UHGV virus genome: UHGV-0040088
DNA length: 39,518 nt
Reading direction: 5' to 3' (one strand)
Origin: a virus
Shown: positions 17,937-39,368 of the stretch, in pieces
Layout of the letters: every line of letters begins with the position of its first letter
Numbering within the stretch: position 1 is the first letter of the stretch
Program-made: the position numbers and the translations under genes
Notes under the pieces: model-generated
Databases searched by the model: none
The model's input: the letters and a program-made list of their open reading frames with translations, nothing else
What the model was told of the DNA's origin: nothing

Positions 17937-18461
17937 TTATGTGCCATGATTAACACCATAATATTTTTCTTCTAAAAACATCCTGTAAGCTACTGCATCA
18001 CCGAAATCGTCAAAGTATTTATTGCTTTTTCTTTTTCCGTTCACAGCTATATACACCCTCCACTGCTCCCTAGACTTGCACCACGATACACCACGAAAAC
18101 CGCTAGTATTGTTTGACTTTATTTTCCCACTCCTTACGAAATCAGCACAGTTATCAACCTGATAACCTATGTTAAGGTTTTCTATTCTATCATCACCCCT
18201 TACGTCGTTAATGTGCCTTATTACATGCTCATCAGGTATCGGGCCGTGATGCATTACCCATATAACTTGATGTCTATAGTAATTTCTCTTTTTATACGTG
18301 AATATGTAGTAACCGTTTTTATTCCTGGCGCCCACCGGACCCGGTTTTCTTCTTCCTCCATTTTCACATATTAAAGTTTTCCAATATATGTTCCCTTCAC
18401 TGTATATAAACAAGTCATTCCAGTTTATGCTATTGACCATGTCGTGATTTATTTGTGACAT
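17937..18461 (-). CDS. HNH homing endonuclease (HNH plus AP2-like)
   Basis: Motifs HQVIWVMHHGPIP, RHINDVRGDDRIENL, FRGVSW..QWR; AT-rich relative to flanking tail genes. Confidence 0.85.
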   Translation of the reverse strand: MSQINHDMVNSINWNDLFIYSEGNIYWKTLICENGGRRKPGPVGARNKNGYYIFTYKKRNYYRHQVIWVMHHGPIPDEHVIRHINDVRGDDRIENLNIGYQVDNCADFVRSGKIKSNNTSGFRGVSWCKSREQWRVYIAVNGKRKSNKYFDDFGDAVAYRMFLEEKYYGVNHGT

Positions 18462-28533: not shown

Positions 28534-31500
28534 ATGATTTACACAACTGGAACAGTTGCCATTAACGGCAATACTGTTAAAGGCACGGGAACAAACTTTT
28601 CCGCGCCGCTTTCTCTTATTCGTGTAGGTTGCACGCTCATTGCTGTTGGCAATCCTGTGCAGATCTTTACCATCACGGAAATTAAAAGCGGCACTGAACT
28701 GTTAGTGACGCCAGCAGCTAACCCCGCAATCCCTGCCGGGACAAAATTTAGCATCCTGCTATCTGATTCGATCTCAGTTGATGGGCTTGCTCAGGACGTA
28801 GCTGAAACCCTGCGTTACTACCAGAGCAAAGAAACAGAAATCGCCTCCGCCGTAGAGTGGTGGAATGAGATCGGCGGCGAAGGTCAGTTGGATCAGCTTC
28901 TTACCAACATTCGCGCAGAAACAGCCAAATCAACCGCTAACGCTCAAAAAACAGAAACTGACAAAAACGCAGCAGAAGCGTCAAAAACAGCGGCTGCAAA
29001 ATCCGCCACGGCAGCGAAAACATCAGAAACCAACGCTAAGGCAAGCGAGACGGCAGCGAAAACAAGCGAAACCAAAGCCAAAACATCAGAGGACAGGGCG
29101 CAAGAATATCTGAATCAAATGGGAAGGCTTACCAGCCCAATGGTCCAATGTGCTTGGCCTGTTGAAACTAGCGGTAATGGCGCTTACGTTAAGATTGCTA
29201 AACTTAGCGATCCAAAGTCATCAGACTGCCACTTAACGCTAATGGTTACAAATGGCGGTGGCTACGGTTTAAGTTACGGGAATATTGACTTTATAGAGAT
29301 CTCCGCTCGAGGTCTTAACGACACAGGCGAAGTAACCAGTGAAAATATATCTAAATTTTTAAGTATTCGCCGACTCGGTTCACCAAACCTTCCCAATAAT
29401 AGTCAAATGTGTTACGGCCTGGTTAAAGGTGACGGCTATATCGAGGTCTGGTGCTACCAGCGATCTTATATTAAAAACACAAAAGTAGCGGTGCTGGCGC
29501 AGACTGGCAACACGGAATTATACATTCCTGAAGGATTTGTTAAGCAAGCCGACGCACCCGCTGGATATATTGAAAGCCCAGCAGCAAGGATTTACGACCA
29601 GGTAAACAAACCCAGCAAGGCAGATCTGGGCCTTTCTAATGCTATGCTTACAGGCGCTTTCGGTCTTGGCGGTAGCGGGATATCAACAACCGGCAAGATG
29701 AGCGATGTAGAGATCTTAAAAGCTCTGCGTGACAAAGGTGGTCATTTCTGGCGCAGTGATAGGCCGACCGGAAGTACGGCGACCATTTATAGCCGCGGTT
29801 CTGGTATATTCTCGCGGTGCGGCGATACGTGGTCGGCGATCAATATCGACTACGGAACAGGTAAAGTCAAGGTTTACGCTGGTAACGATGGTGGACTTAA
29901 TAGTGGTAATTTTTCCGTCAATGAGCTATACGGAACCAAAAATAAACCGTCGAAATCGGACGTTGGACTTGACAACGTAACCAACGATGCACAGGTTAAA
30001 AAATCCGGCGACACCATGACTGGCGACCTGTCGATCACTAAAGCAACACCTTCGATATACATTCGTTCAAAAAGTGGAACCGCCCATGTATGGTTCCAGA
30101 ATGAGGATCAATCGGAACGCGGTGTTATCTGGGCGCCTACCAATTCCGAAGGACTTGGCGAAGTTCACATCAGGGCCAAAAATACAAAAGGTGAATCAAC
30201 TGGTGAACTCATTGTTCGTCACGACGGGGAAATTAGGGTTCCCAGTCTCACAGCGAGTAAAAAAATAAAAGGCGCAACCGCAGATTTTACAAACACATCA
30301 GAAACCACGACGGAGAACACGTTAAAAATCAGCGGTAAGCAGCATACACCGTTAGTTTTAACGCGTACCGGGTATTCTGAAAACCTGTCCATTGGCTTCA
30401 AGGTTGATAACGTTGTTCAAAAATACCTCGGTATTAATAGCGGTGGGGATCTGTGTTTTGGTGATTATGCCGATCACAAAACAAACAGCAAAGTTATCAC
30501 GCAAGCAGTGCTTGATAGCGGTGTGACGGTAGGCGGTCAGACAACCTTTTCTAAACTTGCCACATTTAGCAAAGGCATGACCGGGCCTATCGTACCGGAA
30601 GGGCTTGACTCACGTACCATTGATCTTAATGACCTAATCATCAATGGTTCAGATATAGGATCGGTCAAATACTATCAATGTACATCTTCCAGTGGTGGAG
30701 CGAACATTACCAACAAGCCTGACGGCGTAGGCGGTAACTTCTTGCTGCGTGTAGAGTCAGTCCGTAAAGTTAGTGATACTGACTATATAAGTATGCAAAC
30801 ACTGACTAGTGGCGACAAAGAACGCGTATTTGTTCGTTTTAATACTAATAGTAAGTGGACAGCATGGTGTGAACCTGTTGTATCGGGATGGAAGCAGGAT
30901 GTGTCTGTTAAGACGCTAACAGCAGCCGAAGACGTCATCCTTAAAAACAGTGATACTGGTCCGCGCCTTATTTTAAGGAACTCTAACACATCGGCGCAGT
31001 CGTGGAGTGTAAGGGTGTGGGGTGAAAGCGGAAGGGAAAGCGTTTTTGAGGTTGGTAACAGCAATAGTTACATGTTCTATGCTCAGGAAGATGCAGCAGG
31101 AAACAAGAAATTTGACTTTAACGGTGATATTTCATGTAAGACGCTATATCAAACTTCTGACCAGAGCCTTAAAGACAACATTAAGGTTATAGGTGACGCC
31201 ACCGAATCCATCCGCAAAATGAATGGGTACACCTACACGTTTAAGGACGATGGCCTGCCTTACGCTGGCGTTATTGCACAGGAAGTAATGGACGCGCTGC
31301 CTGAAGCGATAGCGTTTACCACTCTTTGCGGCAAGGAGCTACAAGGACCAACAACTGACGGCAACATCTTACGCGAGGAAATGAAGTGCCTCAGCGTTGA
31401 CTATGCGGCGGTGACTGGTTTACTTGTCCAGGTGGCACGCGAAACGGATAACCGCGTCACCGAACTGGAAGAGGAGAACGCAAGCCTGAAAGCTAACATT

Positions 31501-31569
31501 GCCGCAATGGATGAGCGGATAGCAAAACTTGAAGCGCTTATCAGTCAGTTGACCGGAAGCGAAGAATAA
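28534..31569 (+). CDS. side tail fiber protein (Stf-like N-terminus) with C-terminal intramolecular chaperone (peptidase S74-like) domain
   Basis: N-terminal KTSETNAK-type Ala/Lys/Thr/Ser repeats as in lambdoid Stf fibers; C-terminus SDQSLKDNIKVIG...NGYTYTF... then a coiled coil, as in self-cleaving chaperone domains. Confidence 0.85.
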   Translation: MIYTTGTVAINGNTVKGTGTNFSAPLSLIRVGCTLIAVGNPVQIFTITEIKSGTELLVTPAANPAIPAGTKFSILLSDSISVDGLAQDVAETLRYYQSKETEIASAVEWWNEIGGEGQLDQLLTNIRAETAKSTANAQKTETDKNAAEASKTAAAKSATAAKTSETNAKASETAAKTSETKAKTSEDRAQEYLNQMGRLTSPMVQCAWPVETSGNGAYVKIAKLSDPKSSDCHLTLMVTNGGGYGLSYGNIDFIEISARGLNDTGEVTSENISKFLSIRRLGSPNLPNNSQMCYGLVKGDGYIEVWCYQRSYIKNTKVAVLAQTGNTELYIPEGFVKQADAPAGYIESPAARIYDQVNKPSKADLGLSNAMLTGAFGLGGSGISTTGKMSDVEILKALRDKGGHFWRSDRPTGSTATIYSRGSGIFSRCGDTWSAINIDYGTGKVKVYAGNDGGLNSGNFSVNELYGTKNKPSKSDVGLDNVTNDAQVKKSGDTMTGDLSITKATPSIYIRSKSGTAHVWFQNEDQSERGVIWAPTNSEGLGEVHIRAKNTKGESTGELIVRHDGEIRVPSLTASKKIKGATADFTNTSETTTENTLKISGKQHTPLVLTRTGYSENLSIGFKVDNVVQKYLGINSGGDLCFGDYADHKTNSKVITQAVLDSGVTVGGQTTFSKLATFSKGMTGPIVPEGLDSRTIDLNDLIINGSDIGSVKYYQCTSSSGGANITNKPDGVGGNFLLRVESVRKVSDTDYISMQTLTSGDKERVFVRFNTNSKWTAWCEPVVSGWKQDVSVKTLTAAEDVILKNSDTGPRLILRNSNTSAQSWSVRVWGESGRESVFEVGNSNSYMFYAQEDAAGNKKFDFNGDISCKTLYQTSDQSLKDNIKVIGDATESIRKMNGYTYTFKDDGLPYAGVIAQEVMDALPEAIAFTTLCGKELQGPTTDGNILREEMKCLSVDYAAVTGLLVQVARETDNRVTELEEENASLKANIAAMDERIAKLEALISQLTGSEE

Positions 31570-31598: not shown

Positions 31599-31628
31599 GA
31601 AACGAGGCTAACGCCTCGTTTCTTTTTA
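31599..31628. terminator. terminator between tail fiber gene and convergent minus-strand early operon
   Basis: 10-bp stem gaaacgaggc/gcctcgtttc, loop taac, then TTTTTAT. Confidence 0.65.
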
Positions 31629-31773
31629 TGTACCAAATAGTGACCAAATACCCAAAACCAAAAACAAAAGCACTGTAACATACTGTTTTATAAATTATTA
31701 TTCACAAAGCTAACCATTCCAAGCATACGGCAGATGGCAGGGCGACCAAGAAGAATTGTTGTCGTTTTATCCA

Positions 31774-32436
31774 TTATCTTTTCCCCGTGTATTCAACGTG
31801 TCCGATACATCCATCAATAATAGCTTGCGCCATATTGCGATAATCGCACGAAAAATCATTGTCACGGCTAAAGTCAATCTCGCTTGCCGCATCTTCACCC
31901 ATTACCTTAGTGGCAAGTGCGAACGCTATTTCAGCGAGCGCCTTTTCTTTCGGGTCAATGTGAATGCGGTAAGAGTATTTCTTCCATGCTACAGTTGTTT
32001 CCGTTTCTGATACTAATTTACTGTGAGCGATAGCCCAATTATCACCGAGATATAAAAACTTAACGACATCGATAACCGTTCCGCTCGTAAGTCCTACACA
32101 ATCAAGCCACACACCAACCGGAGGCTTTTCACATGCCAGCCATTCCGTTTTTTCAGGTTGTGTTTCGCAATCATGGTGCTCATCTTCGATTAATTCATCA
32201 ATAATTTCACTTTCTTTATTCATACCGTCATCATCCTTATTCGATAAATTGGCGTATTTATCAAATTTCCAGCTTGCAGCCATAACCGAATAAGTGCCGC
32301 CAGTGTCAGCGCGAACACCCAATAAATAGTATGATCCAAAATTATATTCCGTGTGGCATGTTGTTACCTCAAACGATGGGTAACACTCAGGGTTGGCGCG
32401 ATGGCTAATCACGCCAATTGCTTTAAGTTTATTCAT
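31774..32436 (-). CDS. hypothetical protein (220 aa), last gene of the minus-strand operon
   Basis: ORF in track; acidic central region; no recognisable motif. Confidence 0.55.
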   Translation of the reverse strand: MNKLKAIGVISHRANPECYPSFEVTTCHTEYNFGSYYLLGVRADTGGTYSVMAASWKFDKYANLSNKDDDGMNKESEIIDELIEDEHHDCETQPEKTEWLACEKPPVGVWLDCVGLTSGTVIDVVKFLYLGDNWAIAHSKLVSETETTVAWKKYSYRIHIDPKEKALAEIAFALATKVMGEDAASEIDFSRDNDFSCDYRNMAQAIIDGCIGHVEYTGKR

Positions 32437-32450
32437 TTGCTTATCCTCAA

Positions 32451-32627
32451 TTACGCCACAGTTACATTGTCAACTTTGATAAAATATTCAGGATGGTTTT
32501 CTATTTCGTGCTGAAAGTGCGCGTGGCACAATCGCCAATCACGCGCCTGGTTGTGAAAATAGTAAACATATTCGCCATCAATCTTATATAAAATTCCTGT
32601 AGGTTTAGCCATGTAGTAACGAACCAT
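32451..32627 (-). CDS. hypothetical small protein (58 aa)
   Basis: TAATG stop/start overlap with NinB; the track start at 32681 would overlap NinB by 55 nt. Confidence 0.4.
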   Translation of the reverse strand: MVRYYMAKPTGILYKIDGEYVYYFHNQARDWRLCHAHFQHEIENHPEYFIKVDNVTVA

Positions 32628-33058
32628 TATCGCCCCCAGCGTTTTATAAATTCCTCGTTTAACTTCGTATCGCCAGACCACTGAACACCATGTTCCGCGC
32701 CGAACGAGTAGATCAGTTCGATTAATTCGCTAAATTCTGCTTTACTCATCCGGCTGGTTGACGTACCCAGCACAACAAAACCTGATTTATCCAGGTTAGG
32801 GACAACGCCATATTTCTTAAGCCCGGCAGTAAATACCGCTTTCCAGTCTTCCGACGACAGCTTTTTGCCGTACCAATTAACCTGATCGCTAACGTCTGTC
32901 AGCAGCGCCCAAAGCAACGCGTTTTGACTCAGCGAGCGGGTTTTCTCCTTGATGGTAATTACCAGCGGGCTTTTGCTATCAGGCTGGATCTCCTTTATCT
33001 GTCTGATAGCGTTTTCTTTTACGGCGTCGTTAACTATTTCAAACCTTATTTGCCGCAT
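32627..33058 (-). CDS. ninB: recombination protein NinB (lambda Orf family)
   Basis: Block similarity to lambda NinB as recalled: RSLSQNALLWALLTDVSDQVNWYGKKL / RSLDQNRKLWACLGDVSRQVEWHGRWL; VVPNLDKSGFVVLGTSTSRM / VVPNLAGNGFVVIGQSTSRM. Confidence 0.85.
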   Translation of the reverse strand: MRQIRFEIVNDAVKENAIRQIKEIQPDSKSPLVITIKEKTRSLSQNALLWALLTDVSDQVNWYGKKLSSEDWKAVFTAGLKKYGVVPNLDKSGFVVLGTSTSRMSKAEFSELIELIYSFGAEHGVQWSGDTKLNEEFIKRWGR

Positions 33059-33067
33059 AATATCAAC

Positions 33068-33628
33068 TCAAAACAATTGCAATTGAAAACGTTCGCTGAC
33101 TTCTTTCATTAACTGCTTAACATGTTTCTTATCACGCTTTCGCTGAGTTAACAGGCGGCTTCCAACCTTGCCGACCGTTTCGCTATCAGTAGCAAAACTG
33201 CTTACTGCATTCATTACCTGTTCACAGCTTGCGCCGCAACAAATAAGACCCTTAACGTGTTCAGCCATGTCATCATGTGTTTTAGGTTTTTCTCCGTAAT
33301 AGCCATTATGACGAATAGATGGCAATACTTCCTCAAACACCCAATCCTGGAAGCGTTCGGCTGATTCAAGTTTTGAATGCATAATCAAGCGGAAAACATC
33401 CGGTTCGTAAATCAGGCCAACTCCTTTCGGCTTGAATCCGAATCCTAATTCTCGCGTTTTGCGAGAATCAAGTTTAATCAATGATTTACAGTGTTTTTTA
33501 ATAGCATCATGCTCGTTCTTATAACCTAACGCGCGAGCAACATTAACAGCAACAAAAGCTGGCTTATCTGCATAAATAACCGTTTGCACTTGTTTATCAT
33601 CAAACGAGAATTTAACAACCTTATTCAT
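33068..33628 (-). CDS. Bro-N domain protein (antirepressor-like), paralog 1
   Basis: N-terminal roughly 105 aa are about 75 percent identical to 37744..38481; typical Bro-N pattern (KPAFVAVNVARALGY); unrelated C-terminus. Confidence 0.8.
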   Translation of the reverse strand: MNKVVKFSFDDKQVQTVIYADKPAFVAVNVARALGYKNEHDAIKKHCKSLIKLDSRKTRELGFGFKPKGVGLIYEPDVFRLIMHSKLESAERFQDWVFEEVLPSIRHNGYYGEKPKTHDDMAEHVKGLICCGASCEQVMNAVSSFATDSETVGKVGSRLLTQRKRDKKHVKQLMKEVSERFQLQLF

Positions 33629-34559: not shown

Positions 34560-34635
34560 TTTTAGCCTCGTTTTAAACGCGAAAACAGCCACCAGAAAGC
34601 GGTAAACTTTCCGGCAAGCTGTTTGCTAATATTGA

Positions 34636-36085: not shown

Positions 36086-36592
36086 TCAGGGTAAAGAAAT
36101 ACCGTGATTGCTATGAAAGTTATACATTCTTTCAGCTTCTTTTCTTGCTTTTACGGCATCATCAAATGAGTCACCGTAATAAACGTATATTGTTTTCTTT
36201 TTCCCATCAGACCCCCTTATACCTATTTGCGCGCGCCATTTATTAGTTTTCTTGTTCCATGTAACGCCAACGCATCCGCTGGTGTTACTTGATGGTATTG
36301 TTTTATTTCTGTTGTTCTCCCTCCTTGTAACCATCCTTAAGTTTTCGATTCTATCATCGCCAGGCACATGATTTATGTGATCTATTTCCATTCCATCAGG
36401 GATAGGGCCGTTAAACATTTCCCAAATAATGCGGTGACGCCATGTACAACACACACCATTAACGCGGATAGTCCAATATCCGCTATGATGCCTACTTCCA
36501 GCAACGTCACCGGCTTTTGTTTTGTTATTTGCGCGGTTACAAGACCAATATAGAACACCGTCCCTATAGGTAAATAAATCATCCCACATCAT
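36086..36592 (-). CDS. HNH homing endonuclease (HNH plus AP2-like)
   Basis: Motifs HRIIWEMFNGPIP, DHINHVPGDDRIENL, CVGVTW..KWR; start at internal ATG 36592/36589; third paralog in the window. Confidence 0.8.
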   Translation of the reverse strand: MMWDDLFTYRDGVLYWSCNRANNKTKAGDVAGSRHHSGYWTIRVNGVCCTWRHRIIWEMFNGPIPDGMEIDHINHVPGDDRIENLRMVTRRENNRNKTIPSSNTSGCVGVTWNKKTNKWRAQIGIRGSDGKKKTIYVYYGDSFDDAVKARKEAERMYNFHSNHGISLP

Positions 36593-37709
36593 GACACACC
36601 ACCATTTCAGGCCTATATACAAAGCGACCAATTTCGCCATAATCAGGACTGTAAATGATAACCGCCGCGCAACGTTGCGATCTCCATCCTCCATTAGTTG
36701 AATAAGCGTCTTTGCCCGCTAACGTGCCGTGGTGTTCAACTATGCCTATAGATGATTCTGTTACTGATTTATGGTGCAAATGTCCGACATGGACGTAAAC
36801 ATATTTCGACTTGCCGAAATCCTCGCGCCAGTCAGCTACGCAAGCAGCCAATAAATTTTCCGGCTTTTTAATAGTGTGCCCGTGGTGGTAAGCAAGAAAT
36901 GTTTTACCGTACTGCGTGTGGTGGACGATAGCAGGTGACACATCAACCGTCACGCGCGGTTCATCTTCGTAAAAAGCCGCCAGCGCCGCACGTAGCCAAA
37001 TCATGCCTGACTGATCGTGATTGCCTGACAACACCTGGATTTCAACATCCTTATGATTTAACAACATTTTACCTACCGCCCGCCGGACAGACCGGATCGC
37101 CACATAAACAAGTTTTGCGTAGCGACTATCTTGATCAAGAATGTGCCCGCTTATTGGCGTCACCGGGACCATACCGTCAGAATGAAGCAGATCGCCACCG
37201 AGGAGCAGTACGGCTTTTTCAGACATCGGAGCAGCGCCAACAGCGTAGTCAAAGAAGTCATTCAACACGCGCTCAGCGATCCCAGTGTCGTAGCTCTCGC
37301 CGCATTCAGCTTTATGAGCAAGCGCCCCGATATGCAGATCAAACACCGGATAAAGGGCCAGGCTTTTTTGAAAATCAATTTCAGGCACTGGCACAGCCTC
37401 CGCGCGTGGTATTTCATCCGTGAAAGCGTCGCGGGCCGCTTCCATTAACTGTTCCATTTCGTCGCGGTCACGGGCTGTTTTAATCCAGCGCATGATCACA
37501 TTGCCATCCTTATCGACGAGCAATGACTCAGCATTGACGCCAAAACCCGGTGCGCGACGCGTGGATATTAAACCGCGTTTCGCCAGTTTTGCGCCTAGCC
37601 GCTCGACGTTGCGTTTTGACATGCCATATTTTTCAGCGATCTGCTTGTACGTTAAACCGTTGTTATATTCAGCGATCAATTGCTCATCGCTGATTTTTCT
37701 TTGTGACAT
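36579..37709 (-). CDS. HTH domain fused to calcineurin-like metallophosphoesterase
   Basis: N-terminal HTH (LTYKQIAEKYGMSKRNVERL); phosphoesterase motifs DLH, GGDLLH, GNHD, GHLHH in canonical order. Confidence 0.75.
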   Translation of the reverse strand: MSQRKISDEQLIAEYNNGLTYKQIAEKYGMSKRNVERLGAKLAKRGLISTRRAPGFGVNAESLLVDKDGNVIMRWIKTARDRDEMEQLMEAARDAFTDEIPRAEAVPVPEIDFQKSLALYPVFDLHIGALAHKAECGESYDTGIAERVLNDFFDYAVGAAPMSEKAVLLLGGDLLHSDGMVPVTPISGHILDQDSRYAKLVYVAIRSVRRAVGKMLLNHKDVEIQVLSGNHDQSGMIWLRAALAAFYEDEPRVTVDVSPAIVHHTQYGKTFLAYHHGHTIKKPENLLAACVADWREDFGKSKYVYVHVGHLHHKSVTESSIGIVEHHGTLAGKDAYSTNGGWRSQRCAAVIIYSPDYGEIGRFVYRPEMVVCHDVG

Positions 37710-37743: not shown

Positions 37744-38481
37744 TTAGTTGCAAGTTAAAAGCTCAGTGATCCATACTTGTCCTTTAGCAGTGAATACAGC
37801 CTGCTCATATCCATCGTGAGTTACCCTCATTTCACCGTAGCCCTCATCAATAAACCACTGACTGAATACACGGCGGCGACAGCGAAGATCATAAACACCA
37901 ACCGCCGAAAGTTTTCTGTTTAATTTTACGGCTGACATTCCCAGCGGTTTAGCTACCTCTGAAGCCGTTCGGTGCATATCGTTTTTGACTATCGCGTCAC
38001 ATACAGCCGCTTTCGGAGCCAGCACTTTATTTTCAAGCGCAAGACGTTCATTTTCTTGCTTAACTAACAATTTTTGCTCGTATTCATTAGCCCACGCCCG
38101 CGCCGCTTCCGCAGGGTTAGAGAAGTCAGGCAAAGCAGGTTTGCAACCGTAACACCCATTTTCACGCAAAGCCGGAAGAACCTCCTCGCACACCCAATCC
38201 TGGAAGCGCTCGGCTGATTCTAATTTTGATCTCATAACAAGACGGTATATATCTGCCTCTCGAATTATAATTATGCCTTTTGGTCTGAACCCAAAACCTA
38301 ATTCCGTTGTTTTAACGGAATCAAGTTTAATCAATGACTTACAATGTTTTTTAATGGCCTGATGCTCGTCGTTGTACCCCAGCGCACGGGCCACATCAAC
38401 CGCAACAAAAGCAGGTTTACCGTCATAAATTACAGCAGTGATTTTATTGTCATCAAAATTAAAACACATCAACTCAGACAT
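37744..38481 (-). CDS. Bro-N / KilA-C antirepressor-like protein, paralog 2
   Basis: Bro-N N-terminus (KPAFVAVDVARALGY) and ANT/KilAC-like C-terminus; GGAGA SD before ATG 38481. Confidence 0.8.
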   Translation of the reverse strand: MSELMCFNFDDNKITAVIYDGKPAFVAVDVARALGYNDEHQAIKKHCKSLIKLDSVKTTELGFGFRPKGIIIIREADIYRLVMRSKLESAERFQDWVCEEVLPALRENGCYGCKPALPDFSNPAEAARAWANEYEQKLLVKQENERLALENKVLAPKAAVCDAIVKNDMHRTASEVAKPLGMSAVKLNRKLSAVGVYDLRCRRRVFSQWFIDEGYGEMRVTHDGYEQAVFTAKGQVWITELLTCN

Positions 38482-38729
38482 TGTAATTTCTCCGTAAAAC
38501 GCTCTACAACGCAAAAATCCCACCGCGTAACCCGTTTGCACAGGTTGCAGTGTCTTATTGCGCCAGAGGCGCTATCAGGTGGCTAATTTTCGATTTACAG
38601 ACTGGTATGTAGGTTATGGATTGATTAGCAGGTACAAACCGCCGAACAAAGCGACGTTAACAGCGATTGCAGCAGCGATGGCAAAGGCCAGGGCGAAAAC
38701 GTGTTTACCGTCCATTTTTTAAATCCTCT

Positions 38730-39368
38730 CTAAAACGAATTATTAGAAACGAATTTTCTGTATGGCTTAGGTAACGAAGGAGTGTTGCCGCCAAATAACA
38801 ACCTTATCGCATTAACAGAAAACTCAACATACATAAACGGTTCACCATCAGCATGATAGCCAACCTGTTGGCGAGCAAGCCCGCGAAGCGCCATAGACGG
38901 CGTAACAATCCAGCCATTATCAACCTTTTGAACCATGCCCAGCTTTGCAGCAGCCTTATAAACTTCACCAGACTTTCCAGGCAAGATTTTCCCTGGAGTA
39001 AGGAATACACCCTCAAGCATGTTGATCAGGCAATCATTTTCCTTGCGTAACTGCGCTGCCTCTTTCTCTCTTTCGATGAAGTAGTCACGAACCGCGCGCC
39101 CCTTAGGTGTGTGCTGGATCATCGCAATGTGTTTTGCTGCCTCAACAGTCAGAAAATATTCAGATGCTGGGCGGCCTCCATCCAGGTTATGAACATTTTT
39201 GTTCAAAACCTCAAAATCCAAAGACTTACGCAACCCGCACGCCTTTATCTGACGCTTTATCCACATGTGATAAGGAGTTTTAACACCCATTGCCTCATGT
39301 AACTGGCGACCGTCAACAGCCTCGCGCGTAACGCCGTCCATATCCTTAACAACAATATCGAACTTCAT
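38730..39368 (-). CDS. phage regulatory protein Rha-like (putative antirepressor)
   Basis: N-terminal segment VDGRQLHEAMGVKTPYHMWIKRQI matches the Rha-family pattern; GAGAGGA SD. Confidence 0.65.
   Translation of the reverse strand: MKFDIVVKDMDGVTREAVDGRQLHEAMGVKTPYHMWIKRQIKACGLRKSLDFEVLNKNVHNLDGGRPASEYFLTVEAAKHIAMIQHTPKGRAVRDYFIEREKEAAQLRKENDCLINMLEGVFLTPGKILPGKSGEVYKAAAKLGMVQKVDNGWIVTPSMALRGLARQQVGYHADGEPFMYVEFSVNAIRLLFGGNTPSLPKPYRKFVSNNSF

Follow-up and report, generated by a model that had tools for sequence, protein, structure and literature searches.

The closest described relatives of the gene analyzed here come from the mEp021 (mEpimmI) group of temperate coliphages, which are Nus-dependent and non-lambdoid and are reported to be as prevalent as lambdoid phages in one human fecal isolate collection (PMC11893012). 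The leftward transcription unit of mEp021 is antiterminated by the N-like protein Gp17 at nutL. The closest system by location is the exo-xis region of phage lambda (genes ea22, ea8.5, orf60a, orf61, and orf63), which lies between the recombination genes and xis, toward the distal end of the antiterminated leftward early operon, and whose genes are non-essential modulators (PMC7093339, PMC3824215). Ea22 is itself non-essential, modulates the lysis-lysogeny decision, and is a mosaic of conserved and swapped domains (PMC7093339). We analyzed the gene found in this slot in the virus genome UHGV-0040088, the whole 39,518-nucleotide (nt) stretch of which is called the window below. The gene is a complete coding sequence (31774..32436, minus strand; ATG start, stop codon at 31774-31776) for a protein of 220 amino acids (aa), homologous to mEp021 gp3 (mEp021_03) and mEp010_04 and referred to here as the orphan protein. 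This orphan gene is positionally fixed in a prevalent phage group, yet it is annotated nowhere. The comparisons give this "hypothetical protein" defined parts: a minimal core, an insertable module that may act as a specificity cassette and comes in five alleles, and an acidic peptide of 23 residues that is constrained like a core recombination protein.

The window phage was assigned to the mEp021 group through tblastn and megablast searches against phage records; the lambdoid setting assumed in the initial annotation of the window therefore does not apply. The homologs of the orphan protein have amino acid identities of 91% (mEp010), 82% (mEp554 and mEp044), 68% (mEp021 and mEp515), 62% (MagusPhagus), and 56% (mEp013), and all seven are labelled "hypothetical protein". 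The products mEp021 gp3 (accession # AXN54122.1), mEp010_04, mEp554_04, and MagusPhagus CDS0015 are true orthologs, with 56-91% identity over the full length. Gene order was compared across the mEp021-group phage records and 40 IMG/VR contigs. The order NinB, small open reading frame (ORF), orphan gene, Xis-like helix-turn-helix (HTH) gene, and convergent tyrosine integrase was invariant in 43 of 43 related loci, so that each of them has the orphan gene within the leftward early operon, flanked by the recombination genes on one side and by xis on the other. The window keeps this order but lacks the 3' part of xis and the integrase gene, and it carries its own combination of alleles (N1-M1-C1, described below).

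Location is what the orphan protein shares with the lambda exo-xis proteins, and a mosaic build is what it shares with Ea22. When the family alignment was compared with lambda proteins, hhalign gave probabilities of 0.4% for Ea22 and 0.1% for Ea8.5, and there was no Pfam match to Ead/Ea22. The predicted architectures also differ: Ea22 is built around a central coiled-coil (PMC7093339), whereas the AlphaFold2 (AF2) model of the orphan protein has two beta-barrels joined by a disordered acidic linker.

The orphan gene was intact in all 44 homologous loci, which encode proteins of 215-220 aa through 34 distinct coding sequences, and the ratio of non-synonymous to synonymous divergence (dN/dS) over the whole gene is 0.26. 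These values place the ORF far beyond chance; the orphan protein is genuine and selectively maintained. A large protein collection held 417 homologs, essentially all from E. coli, Shigella, or gut metagenomes, and none named beyond "hypothetical protein". An exhaustive HMMER profile search of 1.84e9 cluster representatives returned nine matches, all of them to the same family or its fragments. Among complete E. coli genomes, 35 of 5,426 carry the gene, always as a single chromosomal copy, and no locus encoding the protein turned up when a single genome from each of 185,579 species was scanned. The family is confined to the mEpimmI temperate phages of E. coli and Shigella.

The initial annotation had found no recognizable motif in the protein, and this held up: the window protein had no match at E <= 1 in Pfam, NCBIfam, or PHROGs, and a PADLOC-DB scan gave zero families at the same threshold. 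Searching Pfam and PHROGs with 36 diverse family members produced nothing significant (noise only: phrog_30103, E 0.038; DUF5348, E 0.08). A profile search of the PDB sequences at E <= 10 yielded three chance matches with E > 0.3, and a word-indexed search seeded with a divergent short form of the protein (P0125) revealed no bridge to other families. Domain HMMs detected no paralog of any of its domains among the 552 window ORFs, and the text and supplements of the mEpimmI paper (PMC11893012) do not mention the gene. Nor was there a match to a NinB-, NinG-, or NinH-type family, the housekeeping nin-region homology that the initial annotation had said would contradict it. Its description of the protein as the largest unassigned one applies to the early operon, where a larger ORF of 376 aa is assigned to the PHROG "DNA repair exonuclease".

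The orphan protein is soluble and acidic, with a mass of 24.7 kDa and an isoelectric point (pI) of 4.8. AF2, run with the family alignment, returned a model with a mean predicted local distance difference test score (pLDDT) of 75. Residues 1-62 (32251..32436, minus strand) are predicted to form an N-terminal small beta-barrel of five strands (at 8-60), in which H12-R13, F22, V24, T26, G34, G40, Y49, M52, and F58 are invariant. An acidic linker follows (residues 63-98; 32143..32250, minus strand) that is predicted to be disordered, with pLDDT 31-47 over residues 64-94. Residues 99-160 (31957..32142, minus strand) are modelled as a second, middle barrel with pLDDT 81-90 and strands at 110-114, 121-130, 135-139, 146-149, and 155-158; this barrel is hypervariable. 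The protein ends in a conserved C-terminal helical tail (residues 161-220; 31777..31956, minus strand) with predicted helices at 162-179, 181-184, and 197-207 and the terminal sequence ...VEYTG.

The acidic central stretch reported initially was confirmed: residues 66-98 contain 14 D/E among 33 residues (42%) against 3 K/R and 2 H, and the pI of the segment is 4.1. Several Cys and His residues had also been pointed out. They are present, seven of each, but most of them vary: in the alignment of 36 members, H12 and C90 alone are invariant, and other alleles replace C196 by R, C210 by D/N, and H213 by F/L. A conserved Cys/His metal site was rejected because of these substitutions, and none is marked. 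More generally, no catalytic, membrane, DNA-binding HTH, or metal-site signature was found in the protein, which also lacks the winged-helix or HTH_17 DNA-binding domain of excisionase and AlpA-type proteins.

Both modelled barrels are five-stranded and superpose on SH3-like small barrels over about 50 residues with a root-mean-square deviation (rmsd) of 2-3 Å. The modules they resemble include Tudor, KOW, Sm/Hfq, and WYL domains, with 3bdu, 7de9, the C-terminal Tudor domain of UvrD/PcrA, and Spt5 KOW as examples. SH3-like small barrels mediate protein or nucleic-acid binding, and the modelled fold class thus says "binding module" and nothing more specific. The possibility that the two barrels arose by internal duplication was rejected at the sequence level (hhalign probability 0.2%).

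Constraint differs between these parts. All identities and dN/dS values given by region are mean pairwise values. The N-barrel has an amino acid identity of 0.6-0.7 and a dN/dS of 0.23-0.24 within allele class; the middle barrel, 0.32-0.48 and 0.23-0.28 within allele class; and the C-tail, 0.72-0.90 and 0.10 (within type C1). Within the linker, residues 68-90 (32167..32235, minus strand; DDDGMNKESEIIDELIEDEHHDC) form a near-invariant acidic core with an identity of 0.92-0.96, a dN/dS of 0.04, and a pS of 0.41. The adjacent gene for the NinB/Orf recombination mediator (32627..33058, minus strand; Pfam PF05772, E 1e-47) served as the conserved neighbor for comparison of rates; its dN is 0.019, its dS 0.52, and its ratio 0.04. 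The non-synonymous divergence of the orphan gene is about 13 times that of NinB (0.25 versus 0.019), and the acidic core is held as tightly as NinB though it is predicted to be disordered. Synonymous differences in the acidic core accumulate at about the same rate as elsewhere in the gene, so the constraint acts on the peptide and not on the DNA; for the same reason, an embedded DNA element or a recombination "linker" conserved at the DNA level was rejected. An Rfam scan of the window gave no matches. The helical hydrophobic moment of the core is among the highest in the protein (residues 72-87; 0.50 for 74-84). Conservation and amphipathic pattern together make the core a candidate linear interaction motif of the kind that folds on binding.

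An acidic, disordered segment could also belong to a flexible nucleic-acid mimic that, like the host-shutoff protein and RNA polymerase inhibitor SPO1 Gp44, inhibits a host DNA- or RNA-binding machine (RNA polymerase, a restriction enzyme, or a nucleoid protein). Gp44, an early phage product of comparable length, is also organized in three parts, with a folded N-domain followed by a disordered acidic stretch and a C-terminal region (PMC8208478), and a Foldseek search of BFVD matched the orphan protein to a Bacillus phage "host shutoff protein" (E 1.2e-4). That match, however, has a TM-score of 0.20 and an rmsd of 20 Å, and is therefore no structural match; none of the PDB sequence matches mentioned above was Gp44. 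The acidic region of Gp44 spans 67 residues with 57% D/E and no basic residue (PMC8208478), whereas the orphan segment is short (about 33 residues), stays below 50% D/E, and includes K, H, and hydrophobic residues. Near-invariance and an amphipathic pattern point to a specific motif and not to a non-specific polyanion. With no sequence similarity and no convincing structural similarity to Gp44, and with an acidic stretch that is shorter, less extreme, and strictly conserved, we consider a mimic of this type very unlikely.

The barrels and the tail fall into discrete, deeply diverged allele classes (N1-N3, M1-M5, and C1-C4), and dS between the M classes is saturated. These classes occur in at least 12 combinations among the 34 unique genes, the window allele being N1-M1-C1, from which it follows that the barrels are old cassettes shuffled by intragenic recombination. 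Positive selection is unsupported, as dN/dS is below 1 in every region, both between and within allele classes. The acidic peptide and the tail are under strong purifying selection, and the gene as a whole combines long-standing allelic diversity and recombination with constraint of moderate strength. The accessory status proposed in the initial annotation agrees with the rapid non-synonymous change and the mosaic cassettes. Every group genome examined has the gene, however, so that its behavior is that of a core-like gene with a fixed position and not of an optional moron.

Nature also provides a shortened version. Five clusters (P0125, P0129-P0132), with 83-87% identity and the same genomic slot, encode a 127-aa form in which the N-barrel is joined directly to the C-terminal helices, without the acidic linker and the middle barrel; its model has a pLDDT of 81 and only generic barrel matches. 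Since these stable natural forms do without both parts, the N-barrel and C-tail constitute the minimal core, and the linker with the middle barrel constitutes an insertable, dispensable module. At one short-form locus (L044:4517-5637, Logan SRR32406413), an unrelated 246-aa Bro/Rha-like gene replaces the upstream 58-aa ORF, which makes the space between NinB and the orphan gene a cargo slot. The 246-aa ORF was considered as a carrier of the missing domains and rejected, as its product is Bro/Rha-like and unrelated to them.

Anatomy, constraint pattern, and context lead us to favor, tentatively and with somewhat less than even confidence, a non-enzymatic modular binder, either an adaptor or an inhibitor, that acts early in infection or induction. 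The constant core of N-barrel and C-tail, together with the acidic amphipathic peptide, would engage a constant partner, the peptide folding on binding. The exchangeable middle barrel would make the protein specific for a partner that is polymorphic; the most plausible candidates are a host factor, a component of host defense, and a competing phage. The orphan protein might correspond in role and position, though not by homology, to the accessory genes of the lambda exo-xis region, which are non-essential and modulate the phage's decision. Several points weigh against this reading. It is built on a generic fold class and on the fact that enzymatic signatures are missing, and the predicted template modeling score (pTM) of 0.44-0.46 means that the relative placement of the domains is not fixed by the model. 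Presence in all examined group members fits a core phage function as well as an accessory one. With no region having a dN/dS above 1, an arms race is not demonstrated, and the allelic diversity could simply reflect old, nearly neutral lineages and recombination. The timing of expression, finally, is deduced from gene order.

A bolder version would make the protein the first of a new class of phage adaptors that exchange cassettes, and with this a modular counter-defense or host-takeover factor specific to a prevalent group of human gut coliphages. Here the acidic peptide and the N-barrel/C-helix core would dock on one conserved host (or phage) machine, and the SH3-like barrel, with five old alleles kept by frequency-dependent selection, would target polymorphic host defense or competitor-phage proteins. 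We regard this version as fairly doubtful. If the cassette model is true, the natural allele swaps offer a ready-made mapping of an interaction with the host or with another phage; otherwise, the orphan gene is just another ordinary early accessory gene. The protein is typical of phage "dark matter", a modular early orphan with no surprising homology. It does have unusual features, namely the tightly constrained disordered peptide, the cassette-type barrels, and the natural minimal form, and it makes a reasonable follow-up candidate.

The initial annotation placed the orphan gene at the end of the operon, next to the terminator of the tail fiber gene. This describes the window correctly; in the relatives (43 of 43 loci), the operon continues with a translationally coupled Xis-like gene, which starts 0-8 nt downstream of the orphan gene, and a convergent integrase. 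The window retains a remnant of the Xis-like (AlpA/HTH) gene (31688..31774, minus strand), the ATG of which overlaps the orphan-gene stop codon (TAATG). Its first 18 codons are homologous to mEp021 xis (82% identity to the mEp021 Xis-like protein over 22 aa in tblastn); past codon 18, the 28-aa ORF continuing in frame (MDKTTTILLGRPAICRMLGMVSFVNNNL) enters unrelated sequence. DNA alignments locate the deletion junction at 31720..31721, where att-proximal DNA (...GCTAACCATTCC) is joined to xis codon 18 (AAGCATACGG...). Beyond the junction, the DNA runs colinearly with the final bases of the records for mEp554 and mEp021, which represent the att-proximal region behind the tail fiber terminator. 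A deletion of about 1.5 kb has removed the 3' part of xis together with int and the attP arm from the window phage, and it is because of this deletion that the orphan gene adjoins the terminator.

The exact orphan protein was found in the same int-less arrangement in independent human gut metagenome contigs (ERZ15263384 and ERZ27287485). Given this recurrence in independent assemblies, the arrangement is a circulating lineage and not an assembly artifact. An integrase was reported in all 48 group genomes analyzed in PMC11893012. Circulating int-less deletion derivatives bear on how temperate gut phages become obligately non-integrating. A second int-less deletion, independent of the first, was observed in the 50.5-kb IMG/VR contig L041 (L041:5286-5420), which retains 41 xis codons. 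Between L041 and the window, the att-side breakpoints lie 6 nt apart (…CCATTCC|… versus …CCATTCCAGACAG|…), and the xis-side breakpoints are different; this pattern suggests aberrant (Int-mediated) recombination at the att core. In two intact relatives (L001:4658-6042 and L002:3663-5074), the convergent genes for the Xis-like protein and the integrase share about 40-60 nt at their 3' ends; through this overlap, the early leftward transcript could control int by antisense action or transcriptional interference.

Strict adjacency to xis at near-zero spacing in 43 of 43 loci, with overlapping stop and start codons in the window, raises the question of whether the orphan protein is an integration/excision accessory factor that works with the Xis-like recombination directionality factor, the integrase, or both in the directionality or timing of excision. 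Ea22, at the analogous position in lambda, has been reported to have functional analogies to Int (PMC7093339). The integrase types and att sites of the group are described in PMC11893012, and we found that the Xis-like proteins divide into types that share only about 44% identity and go with separate integrase types. These types do not co-vary with the most conserved parts of the orphan protein: all common cassettes (N, M, and C) are seen with each of the two major Xis types, and whole proteins that are nearly the same (88-89% identical to that of the window) lie beside either. Moreover, in the two independent lineages that lack int and most of xis (the window and L041), the orphan gene is intact and kept under purifying selection, with a dN/dS of 0.17-0.25 relative to the nearest relatives. 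A role in integration or excision thus appears quite improbable.

Upstream, the gene order given in the initial annotation was correct in detail. The ATG of the orphan gene is preceded at a distance of 7 nt by a Shine-Dalgarno sequence, GAGGA (32444..32448, minus strand; direct sequence reading), within the 14-nt gap after the 58-aa ORF. This ORF (orf58; 32451..32627, minus strand) occupies a variable slot, is annotated in mEp010 and MagusPhagus, has a dN/dS of 0.23, and overlaps the NinB stop codon with its ATG (TAATG). The minus-strand block from 39368 to 31774 is tightly packed and contains, in order, genes for an AntA-like protein, a Bro-N/KilAC protein, an exonuclease, an HNH protein, a DnaB helicase, a MarR-like protein, two small ORFs, a Bro-N protein, NinB, orf58, and the orphan protein. 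We looked for a sigma-70-like promoter between NinB and the orphan gene and found none. Antitermination of the leftward unit by Gp17 at nutL in mEp021 makes delayed-early expression of the orphan gene the natural inference from gene order.

The company of NinB/Orf, the PHROG "DNA repair exonuclease", the DnaB-type helicase, and the HNH endonuclease in one block would suit an accessory of the NinB-exonuclease-helicase module in recombination or replication, for example a Gam- or Abc-like modulator that acts on SSB, RecBCD, or RecFOR through the acidic peptide. Acidic peptides commonly engage DNA-binding proteins, and no recognizable anti-RecBCD gene was noticed in the block. However, we saw no resemblance of the orphan protein to Gam, Abc, SSB, or OB folds, and its evolutionary tempo is discordant with that of the module; we judge this role unlikely.

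Position would also fit a gene that benefits the host and is expressed from the prophage, in superinfection exclusion or defense, at the int-proximal prophage end: in the prophage the orphan gene lies about 1.5 kb from attL, a common site of lysogenic-conversion genes, and its allelic diversity is mosaic. Against this, the gene is co-oriented with and tightly packed into the early operon, with the 14-nt gap upstream and no promoter-like site after NinB, and it is retained in int-less lineages that presumably do not lysogenize. The protein has no signal peptide, no hydrophobic segment of transmembrane grade, and no PADLOC match, and the exclusion function of the group was mapped experimentally to lipoproteins elsewhere in the genome (PMC11893012). 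A host-benefit function is accordingly highly improbable in our view.

The intrinsic terminator of the tail fiber gene lies at 31599..31622 on the plus strand, where a terminator scan found the stem GAAACGAGGC/GCCTCGTTTC and, on the plus strand only, a T-run after it; it is conserved in mEp554, mEp010, mEp044, and mEp013, which carry it as an annotated terminator. A terminator-like hairpin with a T-rich tail was observed inside the leftward operon, between the helicase and MarR-like genes (34589-34617, minus strand). This hairpin could be one site that makes the distal genes, the orphan gene included, dependent on Gp17 antitermination.

Three antirepressor-type genes are present in the leftward early block, all on the minus strand: 33068-33628 (Bro-N alone, 186 aa), 37744-38541 (Bro-N and KilAC/ANT, 265 aa), and 38730-39368 (AntA, 212 aa). 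In mEp021, a DNA methyltransferase sits at the position of the first of these (33068-33628 in the window). The HNH endonuclease of the block (36086-36694, minus strand) combines HNH_3 and AP2 domains and adjoins the DnaB-type helicase. Another HNH endonuclease (17937-18461, minus strand; 174 aa, PHROG HNH) is located on the opposite strand within the plus-strand late/tail block, like a free-standing homing endonuclease. The tail fiber protein (28534-31569, plus strand; 1011 aa) ends in a C-terminal Peptidase_S74 (intramolecular chaperone) domain. Segments of its gene are 75-90% identical at the nucleotide level to the side or L-shaped tail fiber genes of the unrelated phages T5, Ayreon, and Salmonella GEC_vB_N5; as these segments are common to unrelated phages, they reflect horizontal exchange of receptor-binding modules.
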